Positions 13,173 to 35,501 of a stretch of DNA of 64,000 nucleotides are shown one piece after another. Position 1 is the stretch's first letter; every line of letters begins with the position of its first letter. A model generated the notes under the pieces. The model did not search any database, had not been told where the DNA came from, and was given only the letters and a program-made list of their open reading frames with translations. Position numbers and translations under genes: made by a program. Origin of the DNA: Nitrospirales bacterium (GTDB taxonomy: Bacteria > Nitrospirota > Nitrospiria > Nitrospirales > UBA8639); NCBI GenBank assembly GCA_963422365.1, contig OY729426.1, forward strand, positions 512,001 through 576,000, given 5' to 3'.

Positions 13173-13204
13173 GTGTCCTCATTTCCTCTTCAAACCCAGT
13201 CCCA

Positions 13205-14098: not shown

Positions 14099-14103
14099 TC
14101 AGA

Positions 14104-15738
14104 TTACACCGACGACGATCTGAACTTTTTCCGCATAGCATGGCGGATGGCCACGGCGCTGAGATTTAACAGAATGACCACCATGACCAGGATCAAGGCC
14201 GTGACGTACACCATCGGCTTCGCCGCCTCCACGTTCGGGGATTGAAACCCCACGTCGAAGATATGAAAGCCTAAATGCATAAACTTGCGTTCAACGTGCA
14301 GAAATGGAAAATGGTGATCTAAGGGAAGCGCCGGAGCCAATTTGACCACCCCGGTCAACATCAAGGGGGCCACTTCGCCCGTCGCGCGCGCCACCGCTAA
14401 GATTAACCCCGTCAAAATGCCCGGCAAAGCGCAGGGAAGGATCACGCGAATCATACTTTCAAGCTTGGTGGCCCCTAACGCTAAGGAACCTTCACGGTAT
14501 TCTCGAGGAACGGCTGAAAGCCCTTCTTCCGTCGACACGATCACCACCGGAACCGTCAAGAGGGCTAAGGTGAATGACGCCCACAGAATACCGCCCGTTC
14601 CAAACGTCGGGGTCGGTAAGGCTTCGGGATAGAACAGGGTATCAATGGTCCCGCCGACCGCGTAGACAAAGAACCCCAGCCCAAAGACGCCGAACACAAT
14701 CGACGGCACGCCGGCCAAATTATTCACGGCAATGCGGATCATCCGAACGATCACTCCCTGTCGCGCATATTCCCGCAAGTAGAAGGCGGCCAAGACACCA
14801 AAGGGCACGACGGCCACGCTCATGATCAACACCATCATGACGGTGCCGAAGATTGCCGGGAAAATGCCTCCTTCGGTGTTGGCTTCCCGCGGTTCTTGAC
14901 TCAGCACGGACCAAAAATTGGTGAAGTACGTGAGAATTTTTTCAAAGGCGTCCATGGTATTGGGACGAAGGGCGTTCACGATGTGTCCAACGGCAAGGTG
15001 TTGCTCCCGGCCATTTGTCTCGACGAGGACCACGGAGGACTCGTTGAGTTGCTCGCTCAATTTCCGAAGGGTCTCGACATGTTTTTGGTATTGGGTTTCT
15101 AATTGCTTCGTGGAAGCTTGAAGGGCAACAACCTCAGAAGCCTGGGGTTGATCCTGTAATGCCAACTCCCGGATTCTCAACCGAATTTCTTCGATTTCAT
15201 AATTCACGTCGCCGATGACGTCTTTTTGAAGACGTTCAATCTCGTCATGTAACTCATTGGCATGCTCAATCAGCGGCTGTAACGCCTTCCACCCTTCAAG
15301 ATTGCCCGAGGCCACGACTTGTCCGTCCCGCGTGACCTCACGAATCCGGCCATAAAAGTTCCCCCATTCTCTGCGTTCAACGGCGATCACGTCTTGCGGC
15401 GTTTCCACCGACGCGATTTGATCGGTCTCCACCCACCTGAAGTCCAAGCCATACAGATCACGATTTCCGATTTTCAGCCTGACCCGGGTTTTCCCTTCGG
15501 GGAATGCCGGCGTCTCCGAATAGGGGATGACTTCTTCCTCTTTGAGTTCTCCCAGCACGTGCGTGCCGTCCTTGAGTGTCATTTCCACAAGAGCGTGGGG
15601 CCAGAAAAACCCGAGGCCATTGATCATGATCAGGAGAAGGAGGCCACCCACCATGAGGAGCAAGGCGGCTACGGCCGTACCGCAACACCACACGAACAGC
15701 GTCCCTGAATCGAGTATTTTTTTCATCTTGCCAGGCAT
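14104..15738 (-). CDS. pstA: Phosphate ABC transporter permease PstA (long form with periplasmic coiled coil)
   Basis: EPREANTEGGIFPAIFGT, NLAGVPSIVFG, ARATGEVAPL. Confidence 0.95.
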   Translation of the reverse strand: MPGKMKKILDSGTLFVWCCGTAVAALLLMVGGLLLLIMINGLGFFWPHALVEMTLKDGTHVLGELKEEEVIPYSETPAFPEGKTRVRLKIGNRDLYGLDFRWVETDQIASVETPQDVIAVERREWGNFYGRIREVTRDGQVVASGNLEGWKALQPLIEHANELHDEIERLQKDVIGDVNYEIEEIRLRIRELALQDQPQASEVVALQASTKQLETQYQKHVETLRKLSEQLNESSVVLVETNGREQHLAVGHIVNALRPNTMDAFEKILTYFTNFWSVLSQEPREANTEGGIFPAIFGTVMMVLIMSVAVVPFGVLAAFYLREYARQGVIVRMIRIAVNNLAGVPSIVFGVFGLGFFVYAVGGTIDTLFYPEALPTPTFGTGGILWASFTLALLTVPVVIVSTEEGLSAVPREYREGSLALGATKLESMIRVILPCALPGILTGLILAVARATGEVAPLMLTGVVKLAPALPLDHHFPFLHVERKFMHLGFHIFDVGFQSPNVEAAKPMVYVTALILVMVVILLNLSAVAIRHAMRKKFRSSSV

Positions 15739-15748
15739 AGAACCCGTT

Positions 15749-18049: not shown

Positions 18050-18186
18050 GAGATGTGGAGAGTTGTTGGCAGGTACATAACAAAGCCACATCCTGCAAAG
18101 CCTTGACTTTCGGGCATGGCTTTGTCACAAATTTCCCGCGCCACGGTAGTACGCTTTGGCTTTCTCGTCAAGCACAAGACGACCAA

Positions 18187-19221
18187 CTATTGCATGTCAC
18201 CCAATTTCTTACTGATTAAGCTTTGCGGCAATGGGAAATAGCCGTCCTTGATCACGATATGCTGGCCCGCTTTGCTATAGACATATTTAAAGAACTCTCC
18301 GACTAAAGGCGGTAACGGTTTTCCCGGCGCTTTATTCACATACAGGTAGAGAAAACGAGCTAACGGATACTTGCCGGCGGAGGCATTGGCAAACGTCGGC
18401 TCATAACATGCTTCGCCGCTTTTGGCCGACAACGGAATCGCTCGGACCCCTGAGGTTCGATAACCAATACCACTGTACCCAAGACCACCCCGATCTTCAG
18501 CCACGCCCTGCACCACGGACGCCGACCCCGGTTGTTCCTTAACCTCATCTCTATAATCACCTTTTTTCAACACCGCTTTCTTAAAAAACCCATAGGTCCC
18601 CGAGGCTGAATTTCGACCGTACAGACTCACTCTTGTGCTTTGCCAGTTCCCATCAAGGCCCGCCTTCCCCCACGTGTCAATCTCCACAGAATGCCTGCGC
18701 CTCCGGGTTTTTGAAAAGGCAGCATCCACTTCTTCCATACTCAGACACTTGATTGGATTGTCTTTATTGACATACACGGCCAGCGCATCAACGGCAACAG
18801 GAACACTGGTGGGTTTATAGCCGAATTTCGCCTCAAACTTGTCCATCTCTTTCGCTTTCATTTGCCTCGACATCGGGGCGACTTCCGCTGTCCCTTCAAT
18901 TAAGGCCGGAGGAGCCGTGCTGGATCCTTTCCCTTCAATTTGAATCTTCACATTGGGATATTCTTTTCTGAACCCTTCCGCCCACAGAGTCATAAGATTG
19001 TTGAGGGTATCGGATCCGATGCTATTCAGATTCCCGGAGACCCCACTAACCCGACTATAGGCTTTCCAATCTGGATCCACCATCACGTCGGATGCCGCCC
19101 AACTCTGGACTGCACTGCCCATGCCGACTGCCAGGAGAACGAAACCGAGGGATCCAGCCCTCTTCCCGAAAAATCCGGTTGATCGATTTGTGGCACTTGC
19201 CAATACGAACCGTCTCATCAT
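18187..19221 (-). CDS. pstS: Phosphate ABC transporter substrate-binding protein PstS
   Basis: GSDTLNNLM, GKGSSTAPPAL, GRNSASGTY, YPLARFLY; signal peptide. Confidence 0.96.
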   Translation of the reverse strand: MMRRFVLASATNRSTGFFGKRAGSLGFVLLAVGMGSAVQSWAASDVMVDPDWKAYSRVSGVSGNLNSIGSDTLNNLMTLWAEGFRKEYPNVKIQIEGKGSSTAPPALIEGTAEVAPMSRQMKAKEMDKFEAKFGYKPTSVPVAVDALAVYVNKDNPIKCLSMEEVDAAFSKTRRRRHSVEIDTWGKAGLDGNWQSTRVSLYGRNSASGTYGFFKKAVLKKGDYRDEVKEQPGSASVVQGVAEDRGGLGYSGIGYRTSGVRAIPLSAKSGEACYEPTFANASAGKYPLARFLYLYVNKAPGKPLPPLVGEFFKYVYSKAGQHIVIKDGYFPLPQSLISKKLGDMQ

Positions 19222-19289
19222 GTGTGAACCTTCCTTCTGCAACATTCGTTCAATCATATGACCCTTTCTGATAGTGGCTTCACTCTAAG

Positions 19290-19340
19290 CGTTGTATATT
19301 ACTCCGGTGTAAAAAACAGGTTACGAAATTGTTACGACAC
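19290..19340 (-). promoter_or_regulatory. Candidate PHO-box array and -10 element of pstS
   Basis: On the minus strand GTAAC, GTAAC, TTTAC at exact 11-bp spacing, followed by TAATAT. Confidence 0.55.
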
Positions 19341-19545
19341 AAGAGGATTTCCTCATTTTTGGGGTCAGATTCTTGTTCTCTGGCATTGCCGGCGTGCCAA
19401 AGGGGCCAAACCAATTCCCCTCAGAATCGACATGCGCACTATACGAGGAGCGTATTGCAGTCACGTATCAGGACGGTGACACGTCAGTTAATTTTGCTTT
19501 GGAATTTTCTGAAATCGGCTCCTGGCGGCAGAGTGCGGGAAGCCA

Positions 19546-20955
19546 CTAAGGAGTAGAAACGTCGGAGTTAGGAGTAGGTTGGAGTTGCACGGCCGGAAGC
19601 AGAAATTCAATAGTCGTGCCTTTGCCGTATTGACTCTCAACGTGAAGCGTCCCGCCATGCAATTGCACTAAATGTTTCACGATGGCGAGACCAAGGCCGG
19701 TGCCGCCTTCCGTACGGGAACGCGCTTTATCGACTCTGTAAAATCGTTCCGTCACGCGAGGCAAATCGTTTTGCGGAATACCTTGTCCCGTATCCCGGAT
19801 CGTGATGCGGATTTGATCGGTGTTTGTTTTCGCTGCCCCAAAATTCACCGTTCCCCCTTTCGACGTATACTTCACCGCATTGTCAACCACATTCACAAAA
19901 ATCTGAGAGAGCCGATCACGATCGGCCTGCACACACAAATCGGGAGGAACCTGGTTGACAAGCCGCACTTCTTTTTTCGCAGCATCCTTCTCAAACATCG
20001 CCGAGACTTCGTGCACGAAGGCGCCAAGACTCACGGGAGTGGGATTCAGAACCACTTTTCCCGTCTCGATATCGGAAAGATTCAGAAGGTCATTAATTAA
20101 GCGCCCCATCCGTTCCGCGTGGCTCTTCGCGACCTCCAGAAATCGTCGGTGCGTGGTCGATTTCAGCGGGGCTTCATCGAGCACGGTTTCCACGTATCCC
20201 TTGATGGCGGTCAGCGGCGTACGTAACTCATGTGAGACGTTTGCGACAAATTCAGCGCGGACTTTTTCCAACCGCCGGAGCTCGGTGATGTCATGCAAGA
20301 CGAGTAAGATACCCTGGCGCTGTGACGAAAAAGGCACGGACCGGGCATTGACCTCGATAATTCTCAGAGCAGGTAAATGACGCTCAATTTCCCGCTTGCA
20401 CTGCTCCGTGGCATCGAGTGCTTGACACGTCTCGACCCAATCAGCCAATCCTCGATCCCTGACAATTTCCAATAAGGTGCGGCCTTGTCCATCCTCCTGA
20501 TTAAAATCAAGAATCCTTCGCGCAGCGGGATTCATGAGCACCACATGCCCTTGCCCATCCAAAGCGATCACGCCTTCGGTCATACTGTCGAGGATAGCAG
20601 TGCCTTTGGCTCGTTCGGACTCCAATACTTGAACATGGGCTTGGGAGTGAGCCGTGATGTACGTCAACGCCTTTCTCAAGCCGCTCAAGTCATCTCCGTC
20701 TGGTTTCTTCTCCTGCTCCCTCCATCCTTGCAACAGCCGCTCGGCGCCGGTTTGAATTTCATAGACCGGCCTCAAAAGCCATCGACCGACACACAGGCCA
20801 AAAGGAAAAACCAACACGACCACGACCAGGACCCCAACCCATAATGCCCTGCCGGTCGCCCCAGAAGCGGCCAACAGCCACATCGCCGCCATGCCCACCA
20901 ATGTCATGACGCTCAAGAACAATCCGAAACGGGGAATCAACCGGCCCTTCAACAT
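19546..20955 (-). CDS. phoR: Sensor histidine kinase PhoR (TM, PAS, HisKA, HATPase)
   Basis: EFVANVSHELRTPLT, NAVKYT, DTGQGI, ERFYRVDKARSR..GGTGLGL. Confidence 0.93.
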   Translation of the reverse strand: MLKGRLIPRFGLFLSVMTLVGMAAMWLLAASGATGRALWVGVLVVVVLVFPFGLCVGRWLLRPVYEIQTGAERLLQGWREQEKKPDGDDLSGLRKALTYITAHSQAHVQVLESERAKGTAILDSMTEGVIALDGQGHVVLMNPAARRILDFNQEDGQGRTLLEIVRDRGLADWVETCQALDATEQCKREIERHLPALRIIEVNARSVPFSSQRQGILLVLHDITELRRLEKVRAEFVANVSHELRTPLTAIKGYVETVLDEAPLKSTTHRRFLEVAKSHAERMGRLINDLLNLSDIETGKVVLNPTPVSLGAFVHEVSAMFEKDAAKKEVRLVNQVPPDLCVQADRDRLSQIFVNVVDNAVKYTSKGGTVNFGAAKTNTDQIRITIRDTGQGIPQNDLPRVTERFYRVDKARSRTEGGTGLGLAIVKHLVQLHGGTLHVESQYGKGTTIEFLLPAVQLQPTPNSDVSTP

Positions 20956-20969
20956 CGGTGTGTCCTCAT

Positions 20970-21665
20970 TTATCCTTCTGCCTCGAAGCGATAGCCCACA
21001 CCCTTGACCGTCACGATTCGGTGACTTTCCTCTTTGAGTTTTTCTCGAAGGCGTCTGATGTGCACATCGACTGTTCTCGATTCAATTTCCACGGCATTGG
21101 CATACCCCCAGACCATTTCCAAAATTTGCTCCCGATTCAACACCCGCCCGTTGGCGTGTATCAACGCACAGAGCAGATCGAATTCCTTCACCGTGAGTTC
21201 GACAACACTGTCTGCCACGCGGACTTGATGCTTCGCCTCGTCAATTTCAAGAGCCCCGATTCGTCTCATGCCGTCCGTTTGAGGATCGCGCCCCCGCCGT
21301 AACACCGCTTTGATTCGAGCCACCAACTCTCTGGGGGAAAACGGCTTGACGAGGTAGTCGTCCGCTCCTATCTCCAATCCCACCACTCGATCGACTTCTT
21401 CCGCTTTGGCCGTCAACATGATAATCGCCATATTGGCAGTGGTCCGCTCACGACGAAGCAACCGGCAAATTTCCAACCCGTCAATACCCTGCAGCATGAG
21501 ATCCAGCACAAGCAAATCAGGGGATTCGGTCCGTGCGAGTTGCAGCGCCGTTTCTCCTTCATGCGCCTCCAGGCAATGCAGGCCTTCTTTTTCCAAGTGG
21601 TGGCGAACGAGATCAACGATCGCTTGTTCGTCATCCACGATTAAGACTTTCAGAGCCATGGGCAC
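20970..21665 (-). CDS. phoB: OmpR-family response regulator PhoB/PhoP
   Basis: REC + winged helix, SRTVDVHIRRLREKL, TVKGVGY; adjacent to phoR and pst genes. Confidence 0.92.
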   Translation of the reverse strand: MPMALKVLIVDDEQAIVDLVRHHLEKEGLHCLEAHEGETALQLARTESPDLLVLDLMLQGIDGLEICRLLRRERTTANMAIIMLTAKAEEVDRVVGLEIGADDYLVKPFSPRELVARIKAVLRRGRDPQTDGMRRIGALEIDEAKHQVRVADSVVELTVKEFDLLCALIHANGRVLNREQILEMVWGYANAVEIESRTVDVHIRRLREKLKEESHRIVTVKGVGYRFEAEG

Positions 21666-23373: not shown

Positions 23374-24585
23374 TCAAGATTCTTCGATCAGCTGGTACTT
23401 TCGGATCCGGTAGGCGATTTGACGTGGAGTCATGCCCAACAGCCTGGCCGCCTTCGCCTTGACCCATCCGGCTTTCTTGAGAGCTTCTCGAAGACGATCC
23501 CGTTCGATCGCATTCAACCGTGCAGAGAGCGTGTGTTGGGATGCAGGACTGCTCGACTTGGTGGTGGACTGAGATTGCACCGTTTGCATGTCATCAAAAT
23601 AGGGCGCGAGTGATTCAGGAATGGACTGTACCTCGATCAGCGACGTCTCTGCCAAGACGACCAACCGTTCAATGCAATTTTGCAATTCGCGAATGTTTCC
23701 AGGCCAATGGTAGACGCTCATCACATGAACGAGGTCTTTCCCTAATTGGACGCGCCGGTTATTGTCGCGAGTGAATTTGTCGAGAAAATGCGTCATGAGC
23801 AAATGCACGTCGTCCCCTCGGGCACGTAAGGGGGGAAGCGTGAATGGCACAACGTTCAGCCGATAATACAAATCTTCTCGAAACTCACCTGTATGGATCA
23901 TGGCTTCGAGGTGACGATGCGTCGCGGCAATCACCCGAACATCGACCGAGAGTGTCTCCCCACCTCCGACTCGCTCAAATTCTTTGTCTTGAAGCACGCG
24001 AAGGAGCTTGACCTGGGTTGAGAGGGGAATATCTCCGACCTCATCAAGAAACAACGTTCCGCCGGCTGCCTGTTCCAGTCGTCCTTTTCTCGCCTGACTC
24101 GCTCCCGTGAAGGCTCCCCGTTCATGCCCGAACAGGGTGGTTTCAATGAGGGTCTCCGGAACCGCCGCGCAATGCACCACCACAAATGGTTGTTCGGCAC
24201 GCACACTCGAGTGGTGAATTGATTGCGCCACTAACTCTTTTCCCGTTCCACTTTCGCCGCGGAGCAACACCGTTGCCGAGGTGTTCGAGACCCGCTGAAT
24301 GGCAGCCTGCACCGCCTGCATCGCCGTGCTCTTTCCAATAAGAACCGGCGACTGTTTCTTTTTCCTCTGGAAACTTGAAGATTTCGGTGAATCACCTGAT
24401 GGCTTGAGGCATGGGGATGACTCGGAATTCTCAGAAGAACGGTCTGGAGCCTTTCCTGTTTCAGCTTCTTGACTCAGCAAGGCTAGGGCTTGGCGAATCC
24501 GTGTTTCAGGAGAATCCTTTCCCTCTAAAATCGTACCCAGTCGGGTGATGAGATTGTCATCGTCCTTTGAAAGGTCGTGTTGCAT
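23374..24585 (-). CDS. Sigma54-dependent transcriptional activator (NifA-like AAA+/HTH) without an intact sensory domain
   Basis: [57 protein letters not shown]. Confidence 0.92.
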
Positions 24586-25074
24586 TGCGCCGCCCACGTC
24601 TTCAGAAAACAAAAGGCACCGGGATAGCCACATGCAAAAACGTTTCTCGTTTTCACAGGGTCGCCCCGGCGCCTTTGCCTCGGTACGCTTATCGACTGAC
24701 TGAACAAGAAATCGACTGATTTCTCTTACTGACGTGATGCTCGACGAATGTACAGCACCCGTGCCTCTAATAATAAAAAAACGCCCTTTCCCAACCTTCG
24801 TTGGGGAAGGACGTTCATTGTCCTCACAGCTTGTCTCTTGCAGCAAAATGACGACTTTGTCATTCTCAGATTGAAGTTAACCGCACTTTCCTCTGTTTGT
24901 CAATGGTAGTTGTTAAGACACGGTCTCAACCCACATCATGTAAAGTGTTGGAAGAAACGACGAGAGGTTGGCCGTCAGGACTCATCTCGAGCAAACGGAG
25001 GACCATCGAGTCCATCCAGCCACAGCCCACGGGCAAGATGGTCTCATGAAGATTTTTCCAGCAGGGGTCAGGAA

Positions 25075-27189
25075 ATGCAGAAGGTCTTCTCCAGATTAAT
25101 GAGAACGTTTCCCTTAACCATCGGGCACCGCCTGCTTGCCATCATTGTCGTATTGATTGGGTCGCTCGGCACTATCATGGCCATGATCCTCACCACGGGT
25201 TACAACGTCGAACCGGACGCCGTGGTGGATATCGCCGGCCGCCAACGCATGATGGTTCAACGGTATTTCAACGAAACCATCTTGGCTTCCCGTGGCATTG
25301 ACAAAGATCGTTACGCCACGCAGCAGGTGTTGTTGCACTCCGTCGATGCCTTACAAAACGGGGGAGCAGTCATCGTCAATCTGGATACTGAGGAACGCCG
25401 CTCGATTCCCCCGGCGCCGACCGCCCAGGTCCGTGACCTCTTGACGCAACAGCGTGCCTTGCTGGAACGATTCTTTTCCACCACCCAAACCCTGCTGCTC
25501 GAATCCGCGGATCGTGCTCCGTCGTCTGAAGCCTTTTCCGTCCTCAATGAACGGCAAGACGAGCTTCTCCGGAACACCGACGAGGTCGTGAAATTGCTGA
25601 GCACCCATTCTCCTCAAAACACGCAGTGGTGGTTACGAAGCGAGCCGATCATCGGACTCCTGGTAATCGTCTTCAGCGTGGTGCTGGCCCGCCAAGTGGT
25701 GGCCACGAGCAGCAGGCTCGAACAAGAAATCGAACAGCGCAAAAAAGCCGAGGATGAACGCAACCGCTTCTTTGCGCTCTCTCCGGACTTGTTCTGCATC
25801 GCGCAACGGGATGGCAGCGTCAACACGTGCAATCCGGCCTGGGAACGCGAACTGGGCTATTCCACGGCAGAACTTCACAACCACTCCCTCACGGAATTCG
25901 TGCATGCGGAGGATCGCCCCGCCATGATTCAAGAGTTGGCCGTCTTGAAGCAGGGCACCCTTTCGGCTCAATTTGAAAATCGATTCGTGGGAAAAGACGG
26001 CTCGGTGAAATGGCTGCTGTGGAACATCGCCGTCAGCCAAGGGGAGCCCCTGTTGTATGCCACGGCACGTAATATCAATGAACGCAAGTTATACGAGGAG
26101 GAACTCGCCTTGCGCGATCGTTCCATCAATTCGGCGACCAGCGGTATTCTGATCGCGGATGCCCGCCGACCCGATATGCCCACGGTGTATTGCAACGCCG
26201 CCTTTGAAAAAATCACGGGCTATGCCACGGAAGAAGTGTTGGGCCGGAATTGCCGCTTCCTGCAGGGACGCGATCATGATCAACCCGGCCTAGACGCCAT
26301 CCGTCAAGCGATCCGGGACGGCACGGAGGGCAAAGCCGAGTTGCGCAATTACCGGAAGGACGGCAGGTTGTTTTGGAATGAGTTCTACATCGCCCCGGTC
26401 CGCGATCCGCAGGGAACGCTCACGCATTTCATCGGGGTGCAAACGGACGTCACCCAACGCAAGCAGCAGGAAGCCGAATTGGCCCAGAAGACGGAAGCCC
26501 TGGCTCAATCCAACGCCGAGCTTCAACAATTTGCCTACGTGGCCTCCCACGACCTCCAGGAACCGCTCCGCATGGTGGCGAGCTATACCCAGTTGCTCGG
26601 AAAACGCTATAAAGGCAAACTGGACGACGATGCGGATGACTTCATCGGGTACGCCGTGGATGGAGCTGAACGGATGCAGTGGCTCATTCGTGATCTGCTG
26701 GAATATTCACGAGTGGGCTCGGAGAACAAATCCTTCGAATCCACCGAATGTGAACGGATCTTGCAGCAGGTCATGAAGAATCTGTCGGCGGCGATCCGAG
26801 AGCATCAGGCCGAGATCACCCATGATCCACTGCCCGTCATCCAGGCCAACCCGACGCTGCTCACCCAAGTCTTCCAAAACGTGATCGCGAACGCGCTAAA
26901 GTTCCAAGGAGAATCCCCTGCAACCATTCACGTGGGTGCCAGGCCCCTGTTCGACGGATGGGAATTCTTCGTTCAGGATAACGGGATCGGCATCCCGCAG
27001 GATCAACTGGATCGCGTCTTTGCCATCTTTCAACGATTACACCTCCGGAGCGACTACCCAGGAACGGGAATCGGATTGGCCATCTGCAAGCGAATTGTGG
27101 AAAAACACGACGGAAAAATTTGGGTGGAATCCGAACCGGGGAAGGGATCCACCTTCTATTTCACCATTAAGACCTCACGGACCGCATGA
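25075..27189 (+). CDS. Membrane sensor histidine kinase: PilJ/NarX-like extracytoplasmic domain + PAS + LOV + phytochrome-type HisKA/HATPase
   Basis: TM1, VDIAGRQRMMVQR, TM2, PAS, LOV motif GRNCRFLQG with NYRKDG..FWN and FIGVQTDVT, then FAYVASHDLQEPLR and GTGIGLAIC. Confidence 0.93.
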   Translation: MQKVFSRLMRTFPLTIGHRLLAIIVVLIGSLGTIMAMILTTGYNVEPDAVVDIAGRQRMMVQRYFNETILASRGIDKDRYATQQVLLHSVDALQNGGAVIVNLDTEERRSIPPAPTAQVRDLLTQQRALLERFFSTTQTLLLESADRAPSSEAFSVLNERQDELLRNTDEVVKLLSTHSPQNTQWWLRSEPIIGLLVIVFSVVLARQVVATSSRLEQEIEQRKKAEDERNRFFALSPDLFCIAQRDGSVNTCNPAWERELGYSTAELHNHSLTEFVHAEDRPAMIQELAVLKQGTLSAQFENRFVGKDGSVKWLLWNIAVSQGEPLLYATARNINERKLYEEELALRDRSINSATSGILIADARRPDMPTVYCNAAFEKITGYATEEVLGRNCRFLQGRDHDQPGLDAIRQAIRDGTEGKAELRNYRKDGRLFWNEFYIAPVRDPQGTLTHFIGVQTDVTQRKQQEAELAQKTEALAQSNAELQQFAYVASHDLQEPLRMVASYTQLLGKRYKGKLDDDADDFIGYAVDGAERMQWLIRDLLEYSRVGSENKSFESTECERILQQVMKNLSAAIREHQAEITHDPLPVIQANPTLLTQVFQNVIANALKFQGESPATIHVGARPLFDGWEFFVQDNGIGIPQDQLDRVFAIFQRLHLRSDYPGTGIGLAICKRIVEKHDGKIWVESEPGKGSTFYFTIKTSRTA

Positions 27190-28967
27190 ACACAACCACC
27201 ATTCTCTTGCTTGAAGACAACCCGGGGGACGCTCGCCTGATTCGGGCACTCTTTCGAGACATCTCAGGTCGCTCCGTCACCATTCTCAACGCCGAGTCGT
27301 TAAAACAAGCACGCGAGCGCCTGTTCGAAACTCCGGTGGATGTGGCCCTGGTGGACCTCTCGTTACCCGATAGCCAGGGGTTGGCCACTTTTCGAAAACT
27401 AGCCGAGAGTCACCCCTGGCTGCCGCAAGTCTTGCTCACGGGCCTCAACGACCAGGAGATTGCCATCCACGCGGTTCGTGAAGGCGCGCAGGACTACTTC
27501 GTCAAGGGAGAAGTCGACGTCCAGATCCTCATGCGAGCCATCGAATACGGCATCGAAAGAAAACGCATCCAGGCAGAATTAGAAGCCGTAAACGCCCAAG
27601 TCCAACAAAGCGCCGACGATCTCCATTCGATTTTGAATCAACTGCACATCGGGACGATTCTGACCAATTCCCAAGGGCGCATTCTCCACATGAGCGTGTC
27701 CGCCCTCCGATTATTGGGCAAAAGCGAGCAGAACCTGGACTGTCAAACGTGGCGGGACGCCATGGGGCTACCGGACCACGATGTCCAAGCCCTGGAACAA
27801 CTCATGGACCAAGCCCCGGAGGAACGGAAAAAGGTCCTCATCCAGTGTGCCACACCGGAACAGGCCCAACGGTGGTTGGAAATCGATGTTCAAGACGACC
27901 CGCGCGACATCCGAGCCAAGATGTTCTTTCTTTACGATGTCACCGAGGTTCATACCCTCAGGAAACAACTGGATGAACAATCCCAATTTTACGATTTTAT
28001 TGGAAAGTGCCAGCCCATGCAGAACGTGTACCGGCAGATCCAAAACCTCGCGCCGGTGGACTCAACGGTCTTAATCGAAGGGGAAACCGGCACGGGCAAA
28101 GAACTCGTGGCCCGTGCCCTGCACGCGGCCAGCCCCAGAAAGGAGAAGACCTTTCTCGCGGTGCATTGTGCCGGACTGACCGAATCCCTACTGGGAAGCC
28201 AATTATTCGGACACAAAAAAGGTGCGTTTACCGGGGCCAGCACCGATCACCGGGGATTTTTTGAATCCGCCCACGGGGGGACCATCTTGCTGGATGAAAT
28301 CGGCGACATGCCGCATAGCGTGCAGACGAGTTTGCTCAGAGTGTTGCAAGAGAAAGAAATTACCCGCCTAGGCGAATCCCAACCGAGAAAGGTGGACGTT
28401 CGCATTATCTGCGCCACCCATCGCAACTTACATGAGCAGGTCTCCCAACAGACCTTTCGAGCCGACCTGCTGTATCGCATTCGGGTTGGCCGCATCCGCT
28501 TGCCGGCGCTTCGGGAACGCAAAGAAGATATTCCGGCATTGGTAGCGACCTTTCTCAGTCAATGCCGTCAAGCAGTGGGCAAACGGTTCGTGCAAGACAT
28601 CAGCCCGGAAGGGTTGCACCTGCTTTCCCAATACCCCTGGCCCGGGAACGTGCGGGAACTGAAAAATGTCATCGAATACGTTGTGCTGCAATGCGAGGGA
28701 TCCACCATCCACCCGCATCATTTTCCAACCGAGTTGCTGGAACAACCTCGCGAGACCGTCCAGCAGGAACAGCCTGTAGCACACATTCCCCGGGACAAAG
28801 ACAGGAACCAGATCCTCGCCGCCCTGCAACGCACCAAGGGCCATCGAACACAAGCGGCCAGTCTACTCGGAATTAGCCGAGCGACTCTCTACCGGTGGTT
28901 GGACGATTTGGGCATCACCCCCGAGGATCTCACGCAACGGCCCCACGCGAGTTCCGATTCGCCCTGA
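27186..28967 (+). CDS. Sigma54-dependent response regulator (REC-PAS-AAA+-Fis HTH)
   Basis: LLEDN..D / VDLSLPDSQG receiver, GETGTGKE, GAFTGA, LGISRATLYR; ATGA overlap with the kinase. Confidence 0.93.
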   Translation: MNTTTILLLEDNPGDARLIRALFRDISGRSVTILNAESLKQARERLFETPVDVALVDLSLPDSQGLATFRKLAESHPWLPQVLLTGLNDQEIAIHAVREGAQDYFVKGEVDVQILMRAIEYGIERKRIQAELEAVNAQVQQSADDLHSILNQLHIGTILTNSQGRILHMSVSALRLLGKSEQNLDCQTWRDAMGLPDHDVQALEQLMDQAPEERKKVLIQCATPEQAQRWLEIDVQDDPRDIRAKMFFLYDVTEVHTLRKQLDEQSQFYDFIGKCQPMQNVYRQIQNLAPVDSTVLIEGETGTGKELVARALHAASPRKEKTFLAVHCAGLTESLLGSQLFGHKKGAFTGASTDHRGFFESAHGGTILLDEIGDMPHSVQTSLLRVLQEKEITRLGESQPRKVDVRIICATHRNLHEQVSQQTFRADLLYRIRVGRIRLPALRERKEDIPALVATFLSQCRQAVGKRFVQDISPEGLHLLSQYPWPGNVRELKNVIEYVVLQCEGSTIHPHHFPTELLEQPRETVQQEQPVAHIPRDKDRNQILAALQRTKGHRTQAASLLGISRATLYRWLDDLGITPEDLTQRPHASSDSP

Positions 28968-29021: not shown

Positions 29022-29173
29022 TGTCTTTCAGGCGTGAGACATAAATGAGACATTTTATTGTCTTTCGGAAACCATTGCGGCTGCATTCGCTATTTGTAAG
29101 CACTTGATTTGAAAAGCCTTTCAATAATTCAGCCGGCATGGCGCATGGCTGGCATAATGGCACACTCTTTGAA
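29022..29173 (+). promoter_or_regulatory. Sigma54 promoter 1: enhancer repeats + IHF site + -24/-12
   Basis: TGAGACA at 29035 and 29046; IHF consensus AATCAAGTGCTTA on minus strand 29097-29109; TGGCAC-ACTCT-TTGAA at 29158-29173. Confidence 0.75.
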
Positions 29174-29212: not shown

Positions 29213-29680
29213 ATGGATTCAGGCACGACAAAGCCTACTGTGATTTTGGTGATTGAAGATAATCCGGTCGACGTGCGGCTCATCAAAGAAGCTTTAAAAG
29301 AATCCTCGCTGCAGGCCACATTGTCCTTTGTACATGATGGATTGGCTGCCACTCGTTTTCTTCATGAAGCCAAACACGCACCTGGTGAAAACCTCCCCCA
29401 GCTGATCGTGCTCGATCTGAATCTTCCGAAAAAAAGCGGGTTTGAACTACTTAAAGAGATCAAATGGGATGAGATTTTGAAGCGAATTCCTCTGATTGTA
29501 CTGAGTTCTTCGTATAACCCCGCGGATATTGCCAGAGCCTATGATCTCCATGCGAACTGCTATCTCACTAAACCCGTCAACTTTGAATCCTTCCGCAACA
29601 TTGTAAAAGGCGTGGAATACTTTTGGCTGCGAGTCGCCAAGCTTCCCTGTGCCGCAAACGCTGAATCCCCTTCGCCGTAA
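29213..29680 (+). CDS. Single-domain response regulator (Rcp1-like, phytochrome-associated type)
   Basis: ILVIEDNPVD, LIVLDLNLPKKSG.E.L.EIK, AYDLHANCYLTKPV, FWL. Confidence 0.92.
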   Translation: MDSGTTKPTVILVIEDNPVDVRLIKEALKESSLQATLSFVHDGLAATRFLHEAKHAPGENLPQLIVLDLNLPKKSGFELLKEIKWDEILKRIPLIVLSSSYNPADIARAYDLHANCYLTKPVNFESFRNIVKGVEYFWLRVAKLPCAANAESPSP

Positions 29681-29706: not shown

Positions 29707-29830
29707 TGTCTCATTCGATTTTTATGAGACAAAAATATGTCTCATCTGCAATGGATCATCCAGGTATCTTAACAAAATAATTCATAACACATTGAAATAA
29801 AAAGTAATGCATTTTGGCACACAAGTTGAA
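29707..29830 (+). promoter_or_regulatory. Sigma54 promoter 2: enhancer repeats + IHF-like site + -24/-12
   Basis: TGTCTCA at 29707, TGAGACA at 29725, TGTCTCA at 29738; IHF-like TTTCAATGTGTTA on minus strand 29785-29797; TGGCAC-ACAAG-TTGAA at 29815-29830. Confidence 0.75.
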
Positions 29831-29886: not shown

Positions 29887-30204
29887 ATGGCCGGTTCACA
29901 AACATCTGGTCAAACAAGTGCCGAGAGCCAAGTATCCAGTCAGAGATGTTTCCGATGTGGGGGGCTGTTAGTGCGGGAAAGTCTCTTCGATCTTTTCGAT
30001 CATGCAGGGCAAATGTGGTATTGGGCCTTACGGTGCGTCCAATGCGGCAATGTCGTGGACTCTCTCATCCTCAAGCATCGGACAAGCGCCGACCGTCAGG
30101 ACCCCCAACCCGCCGCACCAACGCCGCTGGTCATGGGTCCAGACGGTCAAGAGTCAATGATGACCATCCACTCACATCTTCTAAAAGGAGGAGACGAATC
30201 ATGA
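29887..30204 (+). CDS. Small zinc-ribbon-like protein (CxxCGG...CxxCG)
   Basis: CFRCGGLLV...RCVQCGNVVD; ATGA-coupled to the next gene. Confidence 0.7.
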   Translation: MAGSQTSGQTSAESQVSSQRCFRCGGLLVRESLFDLFDHAGQMWYWALRCVQCGNVVDSLILKHRTSADRQDPQPAAPTPLVMGPDGQESMMTIHSHLLKGGDES

Positions 30205-31145
30205 AGAAACTTCTACCAGCCACCCCGACGGTCGTTCTGTCCGGGATATTGATCCTGATCCCCTGGACCGCAGCCCTGGGCGCAGACTCTGCGGACATGA
30301 TCATGATCCCGCAAGGGGAATTTACCATGGGCGGCAAAGACCACCGTGATGAAACCCCTCACCAAGTCGTGCTCGATGCCTACTATATTGATACGTACGA
30401 GGTCTCGAACGCCAAATATCGAGAATTCATGAAGGCTACCCAGCACTCTGCACCAGCCTACTGGGATGACCCGCGCCTCAATAAACCGGCACAGCCCGTG
30501 GTGGGAGTGAGCTGGTATGACGCCAATGCCTATTGTGAATGGGAAGGCAAACGACTGCCCACGGAAGCGGAATGGGAACGCGCGGCCAAGGGTCTCGAGA
30601 ACGCTCATTTTCCCTGGGGGCACAAAATCGAACCCGCCAGAGCGAACTACGGCCAAAATGTAGGAAAAACCATGCCGGTGGACTCCTACCCGAATGGGGT
30701 AAGCAGCTTCGGTGTATACAATATGGCCGGTAACGTCTTTGAATGGGTCAGCGATTGGTATTCACCGACGTATTTCCAGGTCAGTCAGGCGCTCAATCCT
30801 CAAGGGCCTTCTAGCGGCTTTAACTTTGCGAACCAAGGTCCGGTCAAGGTGCTCAAAGGTGGTTCCTGGCTTGCTCCTCAGACCTCCCTGCACACCAGCC
30901 ATCGTTTCTGGAATCAACCGGACAACAATTCCTATGGGGTGGGCCTTGGGTTTCGATGTGCACGGTCGGCTGGGGACAACACCTTGGAACCGATACGATA
31001 CGACTTCATACACGCCCTCATCAGCATGGGCAAAGAACAATGGGAGGATGCCTTGCATGCCATTGACAAGGCCATCAAAAACAATCCGGACAACATGGAA
31101 TACCGGCAAACCCGAGAAATCATCGTAAAACAACTGCAAGGGTAA
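30201..31145 (+). CDS. Exported formylglycine-generating enzyme (FGE/SUMF1) family protein with C-terminal TPR-like helices
   Basis: Signal peptide, IPQGEFTMG, RLPTEAEWERAA, NMAGNVFEWVSDWY, KGGSW, GFRCA; AAAGGAGG RBS. Confidence 0.9.
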   Translation: MKKLLPATPTVVLSGILILIPWTAALGADSADMIMIPQGEFTMGGKDHRDETPHQVVLDAYYIDTYEVSNAKYREFMKATQHSAPAYWDDPRLNKPAQPVVGVSWYDANAYCEWEGKRLPTEAEWERAAKGLENAHFPWGHKIEPARANYGQNVGKTMPVDSYPNGVSSFGVYNMAGNVFEWVSDWYSPTYFQVSQALNPQGPSSGFNFANQGPVKVLKGGSWLAPQTSLHTSHRFWNQPDNNSYGVGLGFRCARSAGDNTLEPIRYDFIHALISMGKEQWEDALHAIDKAIKNNPDNMEYRQTREIIVKQLQG

Positions 31146-31191
31146 GAGGTGCGAGATCTTTGGTGGTCATTGGGAAAACCGGAGGTGAATC

Positions 31192-31563
31192 ATGAAGAAA
31201 ATAAATCTTATCACGATGATCTTCATTGCGTGGAGTCTCACCTGGGGAATCGGGCTGGTATGGGCCAGGACTTCAGGAAAACATTTTCAGCCACGGAACC
31301 CTGTCCAAGCATCCCTCTACCTGGCCGGCAAAAGCGTGGATGAGGCCTGGGAGGCCTTTCATCATTCGGCACTCGGAGGGACCCTGGCCTCCCCTTCCAT
31401 CCAGACGAAGATCGAGCAAGCCTTACATGATTCTCGACTGCTGTTAGTCGAGGCTCGAGTAGCGGCAAACGCCGATGACGACAGTGCGGTCTTGGAACTC
31501 ACGGAACGGATTGGGAGAATCGCTCGCCAAATCAAAAAAGACAGCCAACGGCGAAAACCATGA
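31192..31563 (+). CDS. Exported hypothetical helical protein
   Basis: GGAGG RBS, signal peptide, ATGA-coupled to the next gene. Confidence 0.75.
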   Translation: MKKINLITMIFIAWSLTWGIGLVWARTSGKHFQPRNPVQASLYLAGKSVDEAWEAFHHSALGGTLASPSIQTKIEQALHDSRLLLVEARVAANADDDSAVLELTERIGRIARQIKKDSQRRKP

Positions 31564-32348
31564 AGCTCAGAGTTATCACACTACTGGCACTGCTCCTTTG
31601 GTATCTTCCAGTTGTTGCGGAACCCATGAAAAGGGATCCGGCCCCGATGGTGGCAATTCCTGCCGGAAGTTTTATTCGAGGAAGCAGCCAGAACGGGGGG
31701 CGGACCGATGAACAGCCTCGTCGGAAGATCTATCTCGGTGCCTTTATGATCGACAAATACGAGGTGACCAATGCGCAATACCTCGACTTTCTTTCCGCCA
31801 CGGGGCATCAGGAACCGCTTAACGTGTATGGCGACGGATCGTTGTTCGAGGTGAAGGGCATTGCCCACTTACCCGTGGTCCAGGTCACATGGCATGATGC
31901 TGCGGATTATTGCCAATGGCTCGGCAAACGTTTGCCATCTGAAGCCGAATGGGAAAAAGCCGCTCGAGGCACCGATGGAAGGGTCTACCCATGGGGAAAT
32001 GAGGGACCCTCGTCTCAATACGTGAACTTCAATCGTGATTGGGTCGCTCCGCACGCACTCGTACCGGTCGGCGCGTTACCCGACGGCGCCTCGCCCTACG
32101 GCGTCCATGAGATGGCAGGGAACGTGAGAGAGTGGGTCCAGGACTGGTATAGTAAAGACTACTATCACGTGGCACCGAATCGAAACCCCAAAGGCCCTGA
32201 GACGGGGCTGCTGAAAGTCATTCGCGGCGGCTCCTGGCACAGCTTCGAGTCCGACATTCGGATAGCTGCCCGTGGAAAAGGAGGGTTCGCGTTGAAAACC
32301 CATGGGACCGGCTTCCGTTGTGCCAGAGGCATTCCTGACTCACCGTAA
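31560..32348 (+). CDS. Exported FGE/SUMF1-family protein
   Basis: RLPSEAEWEKAARG, MAGNVREWVQDWY, RGGSW, GFRCA; signal peptide. Confidence 0.9.
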   Translation: MKLRVITLLALLLWYLPVVAEPMKRDPAPMVAIPAGSFIRGSSQNGGRTDEQPRRKIYLGAFMIDKYEVTNAQYLDFLSATGHQEPLNVYGDGSLFEVKGIAHLPVVQVTWHDAADYCQWLGKRLPSEAEWEKAARGTDGRVYPWGNEGPSSQYVNFNRDWVAPHALVPVGALPDGASPYGVHEMAGNVREWVQDWYSKDYYHVAPNRNPKGPETGLLKVIRGGSWHSFESDIRIAARGKGGFALKTHGTGFRCARGIPDSP

Positions 32349-32368
32349 CCCGTGGCACGAGGCCAACG

Positions 32369-33298
32369 ATGAACATTGCTATTGTGGGGGGCACAGGATT
32401 TATCGGCAGGAATATCGAACCCGTGCTCACTGCCGGTGGACACCGGGTGACGATCGTGACTCGAGACCCCGACAAGGCTTCTGGGGTGGTTGGAGCCAAG
32501 ACTCACGTGCGCGGATGGGATCCGTCGAATGCGGAGACGCTGGACCAGACCTTTCACGAGCAGGACGCCCTTATCAACCTGGCGGGCGCTTCTATTGCCG
32601 AAGGCCGATGGACGCAAGTGCGCAAAAACCTGCTTCGGACCAGCCGGATCGAGACCACTCGGATACTGGTGAAGGCGTTGTCGAATCTCCCGGAAGCCAG
32701 TCGACCACACATCTTTATCAGCGCATCAGGCATCGGGTATTATGGACTCGAGACCACCAATGGTGTCGATGAAACGACGGGACCGGGAAATGGGTTTTTG
32801 GCTGACCTATGCGTGGAATGGGAACGCGAAGCCTTCAGGGCAACGGCCTATGGCATTCGGACCGTGTGTCTGAGAATCAGTATGGTGTTAGGGAAAGACG
32901 ACGGCGCCCTGCAAAAAATGCTTCTCCCCTTCAAATTCTTTCTTGGGGGTCCCATCGGCACAGGCACGCAGCCCGTGAGCTGGATCCACGTTGAAGATCT
33001 GGGACGGCTTGTCGTAGCCATGCTTGAACAGCCCTCTTGCAAAGGCGCTATCAATGCGGCTTCTCCCCATCCAGTCACGATGAAAGAATTTTGTCTGCAA
33101 CTGGGGAAGGCCTTGGGGAGACCTGCTTGGCTTCCTGTTCCGGCGTTGGCGCTTAAAATCGGATTAGGAGAAATGGCTACGCTCATGACTCATGGTCAAT
33201 TGGTGAATCCCCGCATGGCTCAACAACTGGGATTTACTTACAAATATCCGAACCTGGAATCGGCTTTTTCTGCGATACTAAGGAGAGGTCATGAATAG
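32369..33298 (+). CDS. TIGR01777-family NAD-dependent epimerase/oxidoreductase
   Basis: GGTGFIG, INLAGASI, SASGIGYYG, FLADLCVEWE, SWIHVED. Confidence 0.92.
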   Translation: MNIAIVGGTGFIGRNIEPVLTAGGHRVTIVTRDPDKASGVVGAKTHVRGWDPSNAETLDQTFHEQDALINLAGASIAEGRWTQVRKNLLRTSRIETTRILVKALSNLPEASRPHIFISASGIGYYGLETTNGVDETTGPGNGFLADLCVEWEREAFRATAYGIRTVCLRISMVLGKDDGALQKMLLPFKFFLGGPIGTGTQPVSWIHVEDLGRLVVAMLEQPSCKGAINAASPHPVTMKEFCLQLGKALGRPAWLPVPALALKIGLGEMATLMTHGQLVNPRMAQQLGFTYKYPNLESAFSAILRRGHE

Positions 33299-33355
33299 CT
33301 CGGACGGTGTTTCATCGGATTGCTCCAGCATGTTCGCATAAAGAAGGAGGGAAGC

Positions 33356-33838
33356 ATGAAACCATTGGCGACTCCATCGGCGAGCCAGTTCCCCATGTGC
33401 GTCGAACGGTGGATTTTCCTTGTCATTTTACTAGGACTCATGTTGTGTATCCCAATCCAGAGCCATGCACAGCAAGGGAATCCTCACGGTGACACGTCAG
33501 ACCCCATGCTCCCTCCGCCAGGAGTCATTGGAGTCGCGCTGCATCTCACTGCCGAACGCATCGGCGATCCCGCCGGCCTGTTTATTCGAGCAACCCATCC
33601 CTTGGGACCGGCCGTCAAAGCAGGACTGACACACGGACAGGAAATTCTGGCCGTGGACGGCCAGTCTATCAAAGGGAAAACGTATCGAGAGGTCGTGTCC
33701 ATGATACGAGGAGAGGTCGGGGCATCGGTCACACTCCTTGTCAAAACCTTTTCCGACGTCAGGGAAGTGAAGATCGTTCGCGTCAATGAGACACGGTTAG
33801 CTGAAGAACAACGAATCGGTACGGACAACTCCCTGTAG
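33356..33838 (+). CDS. Exported PDZ-domain protein
   Basis: GVIGV...GPAVKAGL..G.EILAVDG....IRG..G.SV.L; N-terminal hydrophobic segment. Confidence 0.85.
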   Translation: MKPLATPSASQFPMCVERWIFLVILLGLMLCIPIQSHAQQGNPHGDTSDPMLPPPGVIGVALHLTAERIGDPAGLFIRATHPLGPAVKAGLTHGQEILAVDGQSIKGKTYREVVSMIRGEVGASVTLLVKTFSDVREVKIVRVNETRLAEEQRIGTDNSL

Positions 33839-33863
33839 TTGTCCGTCAACCCCAAGGCTTCTC

Positions 33864-34877
33864 ATGACCGCCCGGGCAACGCCTACGCACTCACCTATGC
33901 TCCCTGAAGAAACACCCCACGCATCAGGTCTTCCTGTACGGTTGGGCATCAGCCGTTGCTTGTTGGGTGAACCCGTTCGGTACGACGGGGGCCATAAACG
34001 GGATCAGTTTCTGGCGGACGTGCTCGGGCAGCACGTGGAGTGGATTCCGGTTTGTCCCGAAGTGGAAGCAGGATTCGGCACACCGAGAGAATCGATGCGT
34101 TTAGTCGATGACGTGGATGAACCGCACTTGATGACGGTTCGTTCTCATCACGATCACACTGAACGGATGCGCCGTTACACCAAAAAACGGTTGCGCGACT
34201 TACAAGCTTTGAACCTGTCCGGATATGTCTTTAAAAAAGATTCCCCCAGTTGCGGAACCCAGCGCGTTCGAGTGTATACCCGCGAAGGCCATCTCCTGCG
34301 AAAAGGGAAGGGAACGTTTGCCGATGCATTCCAACACCTGTTTCCCTTAACGCCTATCGAGGAAGAAGGACGACTGCGGGACCAAGGCCTTCGGGAACAT
34401 TTTATCGAACGCGTGTTTGGCTATCACCGGTGGCAATCCCACCTTCTCCATACACGACTCACCCGCGGGAGGCTGGTTGCCTTTCATACGGCCCACAAAT
34501 ATCTCTTATTGGCCCACAGCCGACGGCATTACCAAGAGCTTGGTCGATTAGTGGCCAATGCCCGACAGTGTTCCGCTCGAACGTTGGCCCAGGCCTACGG
34601 TCAACGGTTTATGGAGGCCTTGGCCGTCAAAGGAACCATTCGCAAACACGTCAACGTGCTCCAACACGTGGCCGGTCATTTCAAGGACGACTTAAGTTCC
34701 AGGGCGCGCGGGGAACTACACGCGGTGATTGCCGATTACCAGAAAGGGTTTAAGCCGCTGAGCGTCCCCATCACCTTGATCAGACACTATGTCCGGGTGT
34801 TGGACATGCCTTACCTGAGGGATCAGGTGTATCTTGCACCCCATCCCAAGGAACTCATGTTGAGAAACCACGTCTGA
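33864..34877 (+). CDS. YbgA-family DUF523+DUF1722 protein (TudS/RudS-like Fe-S thiouridine desulfidase)
   Basis: GISRCLLGEPVRYDGGHK, CPEVE, KKDSPSCG, FHTAHKYLLLAH, YL.PHP.ELMLRNHV. Confidence 0.92.
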   Translation: MTARATPTHSPMLPEETPHASGLPVRLGISRCLLGEPVRYDGGHKRDQFLADVLGQHVEWIPVCPEVEAGFGTPRESMRLVDDVDEPHLMTVRSHHDHTERMRRYTKKRLRDLQALNLSGYVFKKDSPSCGTQRVRVYTREGHLLRKGKGTFADAFQHLFPLTPIEEEGRLRDQGLREHFIERVFGYHRWQSHLLHTRLTRGRLVAFHTAHKYLLLAHSRRHYQELGRLVANARQCSARTLAQAYGQRFMEALAVKGTIRKHVNVLQHVAGHFKDDLSSRARGELHAVIADYQKGFKPLSVPITLIRHYVRVLDMPYLRDQVYLAPHPKELMLRNHV

Positions 34878-34891
34878 TTGTTAGATCATTC

Positions 34892-34917
34892 GGGACGGCA
34901 CGGGGGCCGTCCCCTAC
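34892..34917. repeat. GTAG-type REP hairpin
   Basis: GGGACGGC-ACGGGG-GCCGTCCC followed by CTAC. Confidence 0.6.
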
Positions 34918-34970
34918 AACAACAATGCACCCCCCCCCGTGGTTGTCCGTCAACTGAAAGAGAGGCAAAC

Positions 34971-35501
34971 ATGAGCGATTCAACAAAAGGCGTGGTACTC
35001 GTGGGGCATGGAGGCATTCCGAAAGGCTACCCTGGGGAACTGGTCACGAAGCTCAAACGACTTGAAGCCCAACGACGCGCCGCAGGAGTCCCGATGTCTG
35101 AAGAGGAATATGAACTCGACCAAAAAATCAGGCTGTGGCCTCGAACCCCGGAAACCGACCCCTATCAAGCCGGGCTTGAAGTATTGGCCACCCGCCTCAG
35201 GCCCCTCCTGCGCGGCGCACGGTTTTCCACGGCCTATAACGAATTTTGCACGCCCACGCTCAGCGAAGCCATTCAACAACAGATCGTCGACGGAGCCACA
35301 GACATTACCGTGATCTCCACCATGTTCACACCGGGCGGCTCGCACTCGGAATATGAGATTCCCGAGGAAATGGACGACCTGCGCAAGAAGTATCCCGATG
35401 TGACCTTGACCTACGCCTGGCCCTTCGATCTGGATAAGGTGGCGGAAATGCTCTCAGATCATCTCCATCGATTTCAGGGCCAACCGTTCGGAGAGGATTG
35501 A
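34971..35501 (+). CDS. CbiX/SirB-type chelatase-domain protein
   Basis: VVLVGHGG, AYNEFC.PT, GGSHSE.EIP, TYAWPFD. Confidence 0.8.
   Translation: MSDSTKGVVLVGHGGIPKGYPGELVTKLKRLEAQRRAAGVPMSEEEYELDQKIRLWPRTPETDPYQAGLEVLATRLRPLLRGARFSTAYNEFCTPTLSEAIQQQIVDGATDITVISTMFTPGGSHSEYEIPEEMDDLRKKYPDVTLTYAWPFDLDKVAEMLSDHLHRFQGQPFGED

Follow-up and report, generated by a model that had tools for sequence, protein, structure and literature searches.

Organization of the locus

The stretch of DNA analyzed here (the window) comprises 64,000 nucleotides of a Nitrospirales genome (GCA_963422365.1, contig OY729426.1, positions 512,001 to 576,000). Its forward strand carries a gene cassette headed by the gene for a membrane histidine kinase of 704 amino acids (aa; 25075..27189), in which a periplasmic domain of the PilJ/McpN type is joined to a cytoplasmic LOV domain. 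The gene for a sigma54-dependent activator (27186..28967) overlaps the kinase stop by 4 nt and is followed by a gene for a single-domain response regulator (rcp, 29213..29680) and a run of eight co-oriented genes (29887..35501). All parts of this system are known; their combination and the probable regulon appear to be undescribed.

The host genome is one contig of 2.50 Mb. It contains nxrA, which we take to be of the Nitrospira type, and a following nxrB-like open reading frame (ORF). Judged from these genes the host is a nitrite oxidizer, as a sequence-only reading of the window had supposed. Named homologues of the kinase come from Nitrospira sp. SB06xx bins, Nitrospirae metagenome-assembled genomes and the cultured Candidatus Nitronereus thalassa, whose kinase (P0183, 704 aa) matches at 63% over aa 15–470. 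This organism belongs to the marine lineage IVb, which has free-living and sponge-associated forms (PMC10579370). Our data suggest that the host is a member of the sponge-associated genus described in PMC11812461, where a mean GC content of 56.9% is given, compared with 53% in the host genome.

Domain architecture of the kinase

The kinase ORF has no internal stop. Its DNA showed zero differences to contigs of two sequencing runs from different studies, one of which may be its source; in a presumed RNA run scattered pieces of the downstream genes were covered and none of the sensor domains. Hydropathy analysis placed two transmembrane (TM) helices at aa 20–39 (25132..25191) and aa 191–210 (25645..25704), which enclose the periplasmic domain (aa 44–181, 25204..25617). 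The cytoplasmic part consists of a first PAS domain without the LOV cysteine (25765..26079), which is deleted in most relatives of the genus, the LOV domain (26113..26457, Cys393 codon 26251–26253) and a HisKA (His492) and HATPase_c module (26521..27174) best matched by bacteriophytochrome kinases (E 3e-35). The Pfam scan assigned PAS_3 to aa 251–321, PAS_9 to aa 365–461, HisKA to aa 483–549 and HATPase_c to aa 592–700. The motifs GRNCRFLQG, NYRKDG, FWN, GVQ and SHDLQEPLR start at aa 390, 425, 433, 454 and 491, respectively. Thus, ORF, hydropathy, Pfam and motif analyses confirmed the architecture described in the sequence-only reading, namely a TM-flanked N-box motif, a PAS domain, a canonical LOV domain with its cysteine and a phytochrome-type HisKA domain. 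In the ESM Atlas, CHASE3-PAS clusters ranked at the top, a PilJ cluster was found at 0.91, and no cluster had the architecture of the kinase.

The sequence VDIAGRQRMMVQR (aa 51–63) lies between the two hydrophobic stretches. Hydropathy, the fold model and fold searches agreed on a four-helix bundle outside the membrane between the two TM helices. Because a search of the PDB with the periplasmic domain as a single sequence returned designed helical proteins only, profile and fold searches were needed. In these McpN was the best match, which supports the postulated NarX/McpN-type fold. Within the N-box-like motif (aa 51–62, 25225..25260) Gly55, Arg58 and Met59 align to Gly58, Arg61 and Met62 of McpN. 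This G-x-x-R with the next Met, which contacts nitrate in McpN, is invariant in all 28 orthologues. The N-box core of nine positions occurred once in 200,000 shuffles of the kinase protein and, among 19,041 six-frame ORFs of the genome, only in the kinase itself. The Asp at position 2, where Asn is usual, had been taken as a reason to doubt the ligand. This doubt is weak because D is permitted in the published N-box, [IVL]-[ND]-x-A-G-x-Q-R-M-L-[ST]-Q (PMC6381276), and was found in 84 of 116 motif-bearing homologues; in NarX/NarQ kinases N occupies this position in 99% (PMC8199190). We see somewhat better than even chances that the periplasmic domain binds nitrate or nitrite.

The LOV part matched solved LOV proteins with E values down to 1e-36 and contains the cysteine in G-x-N-C-R-F-L-Q. 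Arg394, Asn425, Asn435 and Gln456 align with solved LOV domains and are presumably the flavin-contacting Arg, the two Asn and the signalling Gln. Together with Asn392 and Cys393 they are invariant in the 25 LOV-bearing rows of the 28-row genus alignment, in three of which Gln397 is replaced by Tyr. Cys393 was kept in all 120 listed matches, the list being ranked on a region that includes the LOV domain. The published LOV pattern [NS]-x2-[FPGHSA]-x4-[GEQR]-x(9,11)-C (PMC4844311) is present as well. Only one ORF of the genome, the kinase, carries the LOV motif, and a search of this genome (98.6% complete) for the BLUF, PHY and photolyase families gave no match. Light sensing by the kinase is likely on this evidence, and a LOV photocycle would be expected with high confidence.

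Activator and putative promoters

The activator is composed of REC, PAS, AAA+ (GAFTGA) and Fis-type helix-turn-helix domains and, with RpoN encoded in the genome, has the features of a sigma54 enhancer-binding protein. Among the 37 genus relatives, its orthologues and those of the kinase were found in the same 28 genomes, the activator directly 3' of the kinase in 26 of the first 27 examined. In one relative (G003; L194, L028) some 40 kb separates the two genes, which are both intact and lie on opposite strands; an inversion is the probable cause. The activator match contains an internal stop in two others (G012, L048; G018, L044) and an interruption of about 1.1 kb in a third (G032, L023), which points to a possible decay of the cassette in these genomes.

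An enhancer-like TGAGACA direct repeat (29035..29052) precedes a sigma54 -24/-12-like element, TGGCAC-N5-TTGA (29158..29172), ahead of rcp, which encodes an Rcp1/RcpA-type response regulator (1I3C, E 2e-38). Behind rcp follow further enhancer-like sites (29707..29744), including the palindrome TGAGACA-N6-TGTCTCA, the only copy in the genome, and a second TGGCAC-N5-TTGA element (29815..29829). In an alignment of the upstream regions both elements were conserved, 70–105 bp behind the TGAGACA/TGTCTCA repeats. The genome contains eight half-site clusters, and a sigma54 element was found at these two only. The composite enhancer-promoter pattern was present in 24 of the 28 kinase-positive relatives and in none of the nine negative ones, with 0/115 in the reversed control. 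It is quite probable, judged from this arrangement, that the activator overlapping the kinase acts on the two adjacent promoters. This activator and its two promoters, nxr not included, are the probable output of the kinase, which the sequence-only reading had missed.

A NifA-like sigma54 activator gene without a recognized N-terminal sensor, patchy among the relatives, lies divergently on the reverse strand (23374–24846). This gene was considered as the source of the enhancer binder and rejected: two relatives (G001, G023) keep it without cassette and sites, and many site-bearing genomes lack it locally.

The putative target run and RudS

Promoter 2 heads the eight co-oriented genes. The first, a small CxxC-CxxC zinc-ribbon-like ORF (29887..30204), gave weak matches and is conserved in position. 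Two FGE-sulfatase-domain proteins (30201..31145 and 31560..32348) enclose a small protein which is possibly an SmbP-like metal binder (31192..31563; Atlas score 0.85, a lead only). They are followed by a TIGR01777 (YfcH) family oxidoreductase (32369..33298; 317 bits, cut-off 207), a PDZ-domain protein (33356..33838), a RudS-type tRNA 4-thiouridine (s4U) desulfidase (33864..34877) and a CbiX-like chelatase-fold protein (34971..35501). This gene order is kept, with insertions, in three genomes outside the genus (G078, G183, G100). Since a scan for sigma70 promoters and terminators remained at chance level (7 versus 6.1 and 13 versus 12.8), the operon extent was taken from spacing (gaps of -4 to about 90 bp) and synteny. 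A single transcript reaching rudS is moderately probable.

The RudS-type protein scored over cut-off for both Pfam domains (TudS/DUF523 and DUF1722). It shows the TudS-DUF1722 fusion, the Fe-S cysteines and the catalytic Glu/Ser of RudS in CPE and SPSC motifs (aa 30–69 and 127–131), which were matched by position, not aligned to a tested RudS. ThiI is, like RpoN, present in the genome. RudS strips tRNA of s4U, shortens the growth delay caused by ultraviolet A (UVA) and is often encoded in light-responsive operons (PMC11417400). Removal of tRNA s4U is the putative function of the protein in the window. In four of the nine kinase-less relatives (G011, G013, G021, G006; L186–L189) the DUF1722 half of RudS is lost. 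These four probably represent one clade, and a decay of RudS that tracks kinase loss was not used as support.

Distribution and variants

Of the 114 genomes of the family, 82 contain the bundle; the counts in three other families were 16/160, 5/21 and 0/5. Of the 28 orthologous kinases in the genus 25 contain LOV: five have PAS and LOV, 20 have LOV without PAS, and three have neither. The latter (G002, G007, G008) retain the bundle as sole sensor, in frame and with the cassette kept. Outside the genus LOV was present in three (G078, G183, G100) of 60 bundle ORFs, which came from 59 regions retrieved out of 96 match rows. In another genome (G127) a GAF-LOV-HisKA kinase without bundle or TM helices has taken the place of the membrane form ahead of the same activator and rcp (L193:8484–10076). 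In a midpoint-rooted tree of 32 kinases, with G100 as a long branch and G050 excluded, the PAS+LOV forms lay outside a supported clade (98/94) which contained the PAS-less and LOV-less forms. Therefore, the form in the window looks ancestral. The linkers remain in register, with 17 or 24 residues in the PAS-less kinases (76/76 scored matches) and 44 residues in all three LOV-less forms. Heptad periodicity is a mark of coiled-coil signalling (PMC6798134).

A scan of the genome contigs gave one true locus and one chance match. The LOV cysteine motif occurred in two of 150 listed representatives (of 347 found), both of them orthologues. Further searches, all of limited range, gave no LOV cysteine motif among 79 long proteins from the distant-profile search, no match among proteins over 1232 aa in the fusion search and no match spanning bundle and LOV outside family f1 in 251 genomes of the phylum. 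Seven metagenome loci showed neither N-box nor LOV motif in a limited search which does not imply absence. One distant-profile match (P0320) was a eukaryotic protein from a Noctiluca transcriptome with PilJ and PF01094, covering a short stretch of the bundle profile.

The LOV-less bundle kinases of the family often precede an OmpR-type regulator, a globin-receiver fusion and a cupredoxin-like protein (L102:4377–5276 and 10 similar loci; L141:3570–4025 and 19 similar loci), a set which is possibly an N-oxide response module. Also observed was a one-component membrane activator of about 696 aa, in which the bundle is joined in direct fusion to a PAS domain and the activator domain of a sigma54 regulator (L115, L118, L127, L103).

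Proposed signalling chain and alternatives

The domains, key residues, gene cassette, promoter-like elements and co-occurrence described above, which follow from sequence, fold model and conservation, can be joined into the following proposal. A dimeric membrane kinase would receive two inputs acting serially through a single coiled coil. On the periplasmic side, the two Arg58 residues at the dimer axis would hold nitrate or nitrite between them, in the manner of McpN and NarX; these anions are the product and the substrate of the periplasmic nitrite oxidation of the host. On the cytoplasmic side, an adduct of Cys393 with flavin mononucleotide would form in the LOV domain under blue light. Both inputs would shift the kinase/phosphatase balance at His492. 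Phosphate would then pass to the overlapping REC-sigma54 activator, the Rcp1-like receiver serving as sink or feedback. Bound to the TGAGACA sites, the activator would open the two sigma54 promoters of rcp and of the eight-gene run including RudS, which would remove UVA-sensitive thiouridine from tRNA. As output, a response to light stress would be adjusted to the N-oxyanion status; control of nxr is excluded from the proposal.

Integration of N-oxyanion status and light by the kinase is plausible on sequence grounds. For the whole chain, from periplasmic nitrate/nitrite and blue light in series through the kinase and the adjacent activator to the light-stress gene set, we consider the chances about even. 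That a lineage IVb kinase forms a natural two-input logic gate, which reads nitrate/nitrite and blue light and lets both decide on the expression of a sigma54 regulon dedicated to photoprotection (RudS and its partners), is put forward tentatively, with chances somewhat short of even. Predicted single-input versions already exist in nature, with the bundle only (G002, G007, G008) or GAF-LOV only (G127). Nitrite oxidation is inhibited by light, most strongly by blue light, which is treated as damage; under blue-green light, nitrification by N. inopinata is delayed, nitrite oxidation reportedly being the more sensitive step (PMC9797979). This light sensitivity is a motive for the pathway, no proof. 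Photoreceptor terms were found neither in the available text of PMC9797979 nor in the Ca. Nitronereus genome paper.

Several observations weigh against the proposed chain. The profile scan suggested by the sequence-only reading returned PAS_9 and HisKA over the kinase, but PilJ (PF13675) at aa 49–140 reached only 19.4 bits (E 0.0011), under the cut-off of 26.6. The PilJ score was 24.5 bits in a whole-genome search, still below the cut-off, which was passed by one orthologue (G007, 27.7 bits) and missed by two others. The N-box fits the strict pattern at 10 of 12 positions and departs from it at positions 10–11 (Met60-Val61 for L-[ST]); just 12 of 150 homologues match it fully. The best Foldseek E value for the bundle was only 1.8e-3, and high Z scores come easily to helical bundles. 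Some PilJ domains do not bind nitrate (PMC6381276), and our searches revealed no subfamily member whose ligand has been measured. Genes of the nar, nap, nir or nrt type were found neither beside the kinase nor among the 31 neighbours examined for related kinases, whereas NarX-type kinases have such genes nearby (PMC8199190), and the target run is without evident nitrate link. RudS is present in 103 of the 114 family genomes and intact in five of the nine kinase-less relatives; it is therefore not cassette-dependent, and its link to the kinase is positional, not exclusive. The composite promoter pattern also occurs in ten genomes outside the genus, in seven of which this kinase was not found, and its match in G014 lies away from the cassette. 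The co-occurrence counts are overstated because related genomes are not independent. Finally, the in-register deletions could reflect recombination at a repeated linker motif instead of selection.

The low PilJ score, Met60-Val61 and the lack of nitrate genes nearby would also fit a blue-light kinase whose bundle binds another small anion (bicarbonate, formate or sulfite) or signals no more, light being the true input and the nitrate link mere ancestry. Sulfite is also bound by NarX/NarQ, and the soluble GAF-LOV kinase of G127 drives the same activator/rcp cassette without a bundle. We nevertheless regard this explanation as rather unlikely: the Gly, Arg and Met that match the nitrate contacts of McpN do not vary among the orthologues, three relatives keep the bundle in frame as sole sensor with the cassette, and the host makes and uses nitrate and nitrite in its periplasm.

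Considerably less probable is an N-oxyanion kinase for which light is of minor importance in vivo, its LOV domain either sensing oxygen or the redox state of the flavin or having become a dispensable remnant in hosts that live in the shade. Such a role is compatible with the deletion of LOV in three of the 28 kinases, the Tyr in place of Gln397 in three of 25, the promoters and rudS kept in LOV-less genomes and the redox co-regulation of Caulobacter LovK (PMC4844311). Most related bundle kinases of the order lack LOV as well (3/60 ORFs with LOV outside the genus). However, Cys393 is present in 25 of 25 LOV-bearing orthologues and throughout the LOV-ranked list of matches, and the target run contains RudS, a gene of light-responsive operons.

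That light and N-oxyanion status throttle nxrAB via a sigma54 promoter, photoinhibition thus being partly regulated, is very improbable, since nxrA has no TGAGACA cluster, six further sigma54 activators are encoded in the genome and the cassette was not found in nine of 37 relatives, although nxrA is preceded at 155 bp by a canonical sigma54 element, nxrAB of Nitrospira has flanking genes for sigma54 activators (PMC6606698) and light suppression of nxrB is reported in a review (PMC9797979). The nxrA element lies outside the window in an AT-rich intergenic region (G000:C1:1033555; L150), and no activator gene was seen adjoining.

If the proposed integration of N-oxyanions and light is true, nitrite oxidizers would have their first described photoreceptor pathway and would manage photoinhibition actively. 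Because the LOV kinase is conserved, the promoter motif defined and one carrier in culture, light sensing by abundant marine and sponge-associated nitrite oxidizers, and its weighing against substrate or product, would be directly testable. Studies of signal integration would gain a natural membrane kinase in which a ligand input and a light input act in series, together with its natural deletion variants. The kinase is also a pointer to the D-type N-box subfamily, present in 82 of the 114 family genomes.

Neighbouring genes

Just upstream, on the reverse strand, lies a phosphate cluster (phoB-phoR-pstSCAB-phoU, 12507–21665), recognized from the translations. Three long, GC-rich and skewed ORFs (4234–10294, reverse strand) have the look of repeat-rich surface proteins.

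Comparison with known systems

In the literature searched we found neither a PilJ/NarX-LOV fusion nor a Nitrospirales LOV pathway described, in keeping with the sequence-only reading, which knew of no characterized protein with this architecture; Glantz et al. 2016 or the supplement of PMC4844311 could list it. A LOV form is not listed in the available sections of a review on NarX-type kinases (PMC8199190).

McpN from Pseudomonas aeruginosa (PDB 6GCV; PMC6381276) likewise carries, between two TM helices, a PilJ-type bundle of four helices in the periplasm. It is the best structural and profile match of the bundle and shares the G-x-Q-R-M core. The window protein differs in its kinase output, an identity of 16–18%, an N-box ending in M-V-Q, a beta-hairpin insert in the model and the downstream LOV domain. 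McpN is a chemoreceptor; flagellin was not found in the host genome. In contrast to NarX and NarQ (PMC8199190), the kinase has a HisKA domain of PF00512, not the subgroup-3 dimerization and histidine phosphotransfer domain that usually comes with HAMP in that family, gave no HAMP or HisKA_3 match, carries D in place of the 99%-conserved N and contains LOV. Its partners are a sigma54 activator and an Rcp1-like receiver, not NarL/NarP.

The kinase module and the single-domain receiver are of the type known from Cph1/Rcp1 and bacteriophytochrome pairs, but the kinase lacks a bilin-binding module, and no PHY domain was found in the genome. With the LitR-controlled phrB-litR-rudS operon of Pseudomonas (PMC11417400) the locus shares RudS as a target of blue-light regulation. 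Here a LOV kinase and a sigma54 activator are proposed, not a B12-dependent MerR repressor, and no photolyase was found.

Brucella LOV-HK, Caulobacter LovK and the engineered YF1 and YHF (PMC6798134) likewise have a canonical LOV domain joined to a kinase by a coiled coil, and in YHF tandem sensors combine the blue-light and oxygen signals. Location in the membrane does not by itself make a LOV kinase unique, because a TM-dCache-TM-LOV-PAS-HisKA kinase was observed in another Nitrospirales family (L223:1043–3607 of G059; L224 of G072). Whereas LOV-HK, LovK, YF1 and YHF, like the photoreceptor kinases described in general, are mostly soluble, the LOV domain of the window kinase sits beneath a membrane ligand-binding domain.
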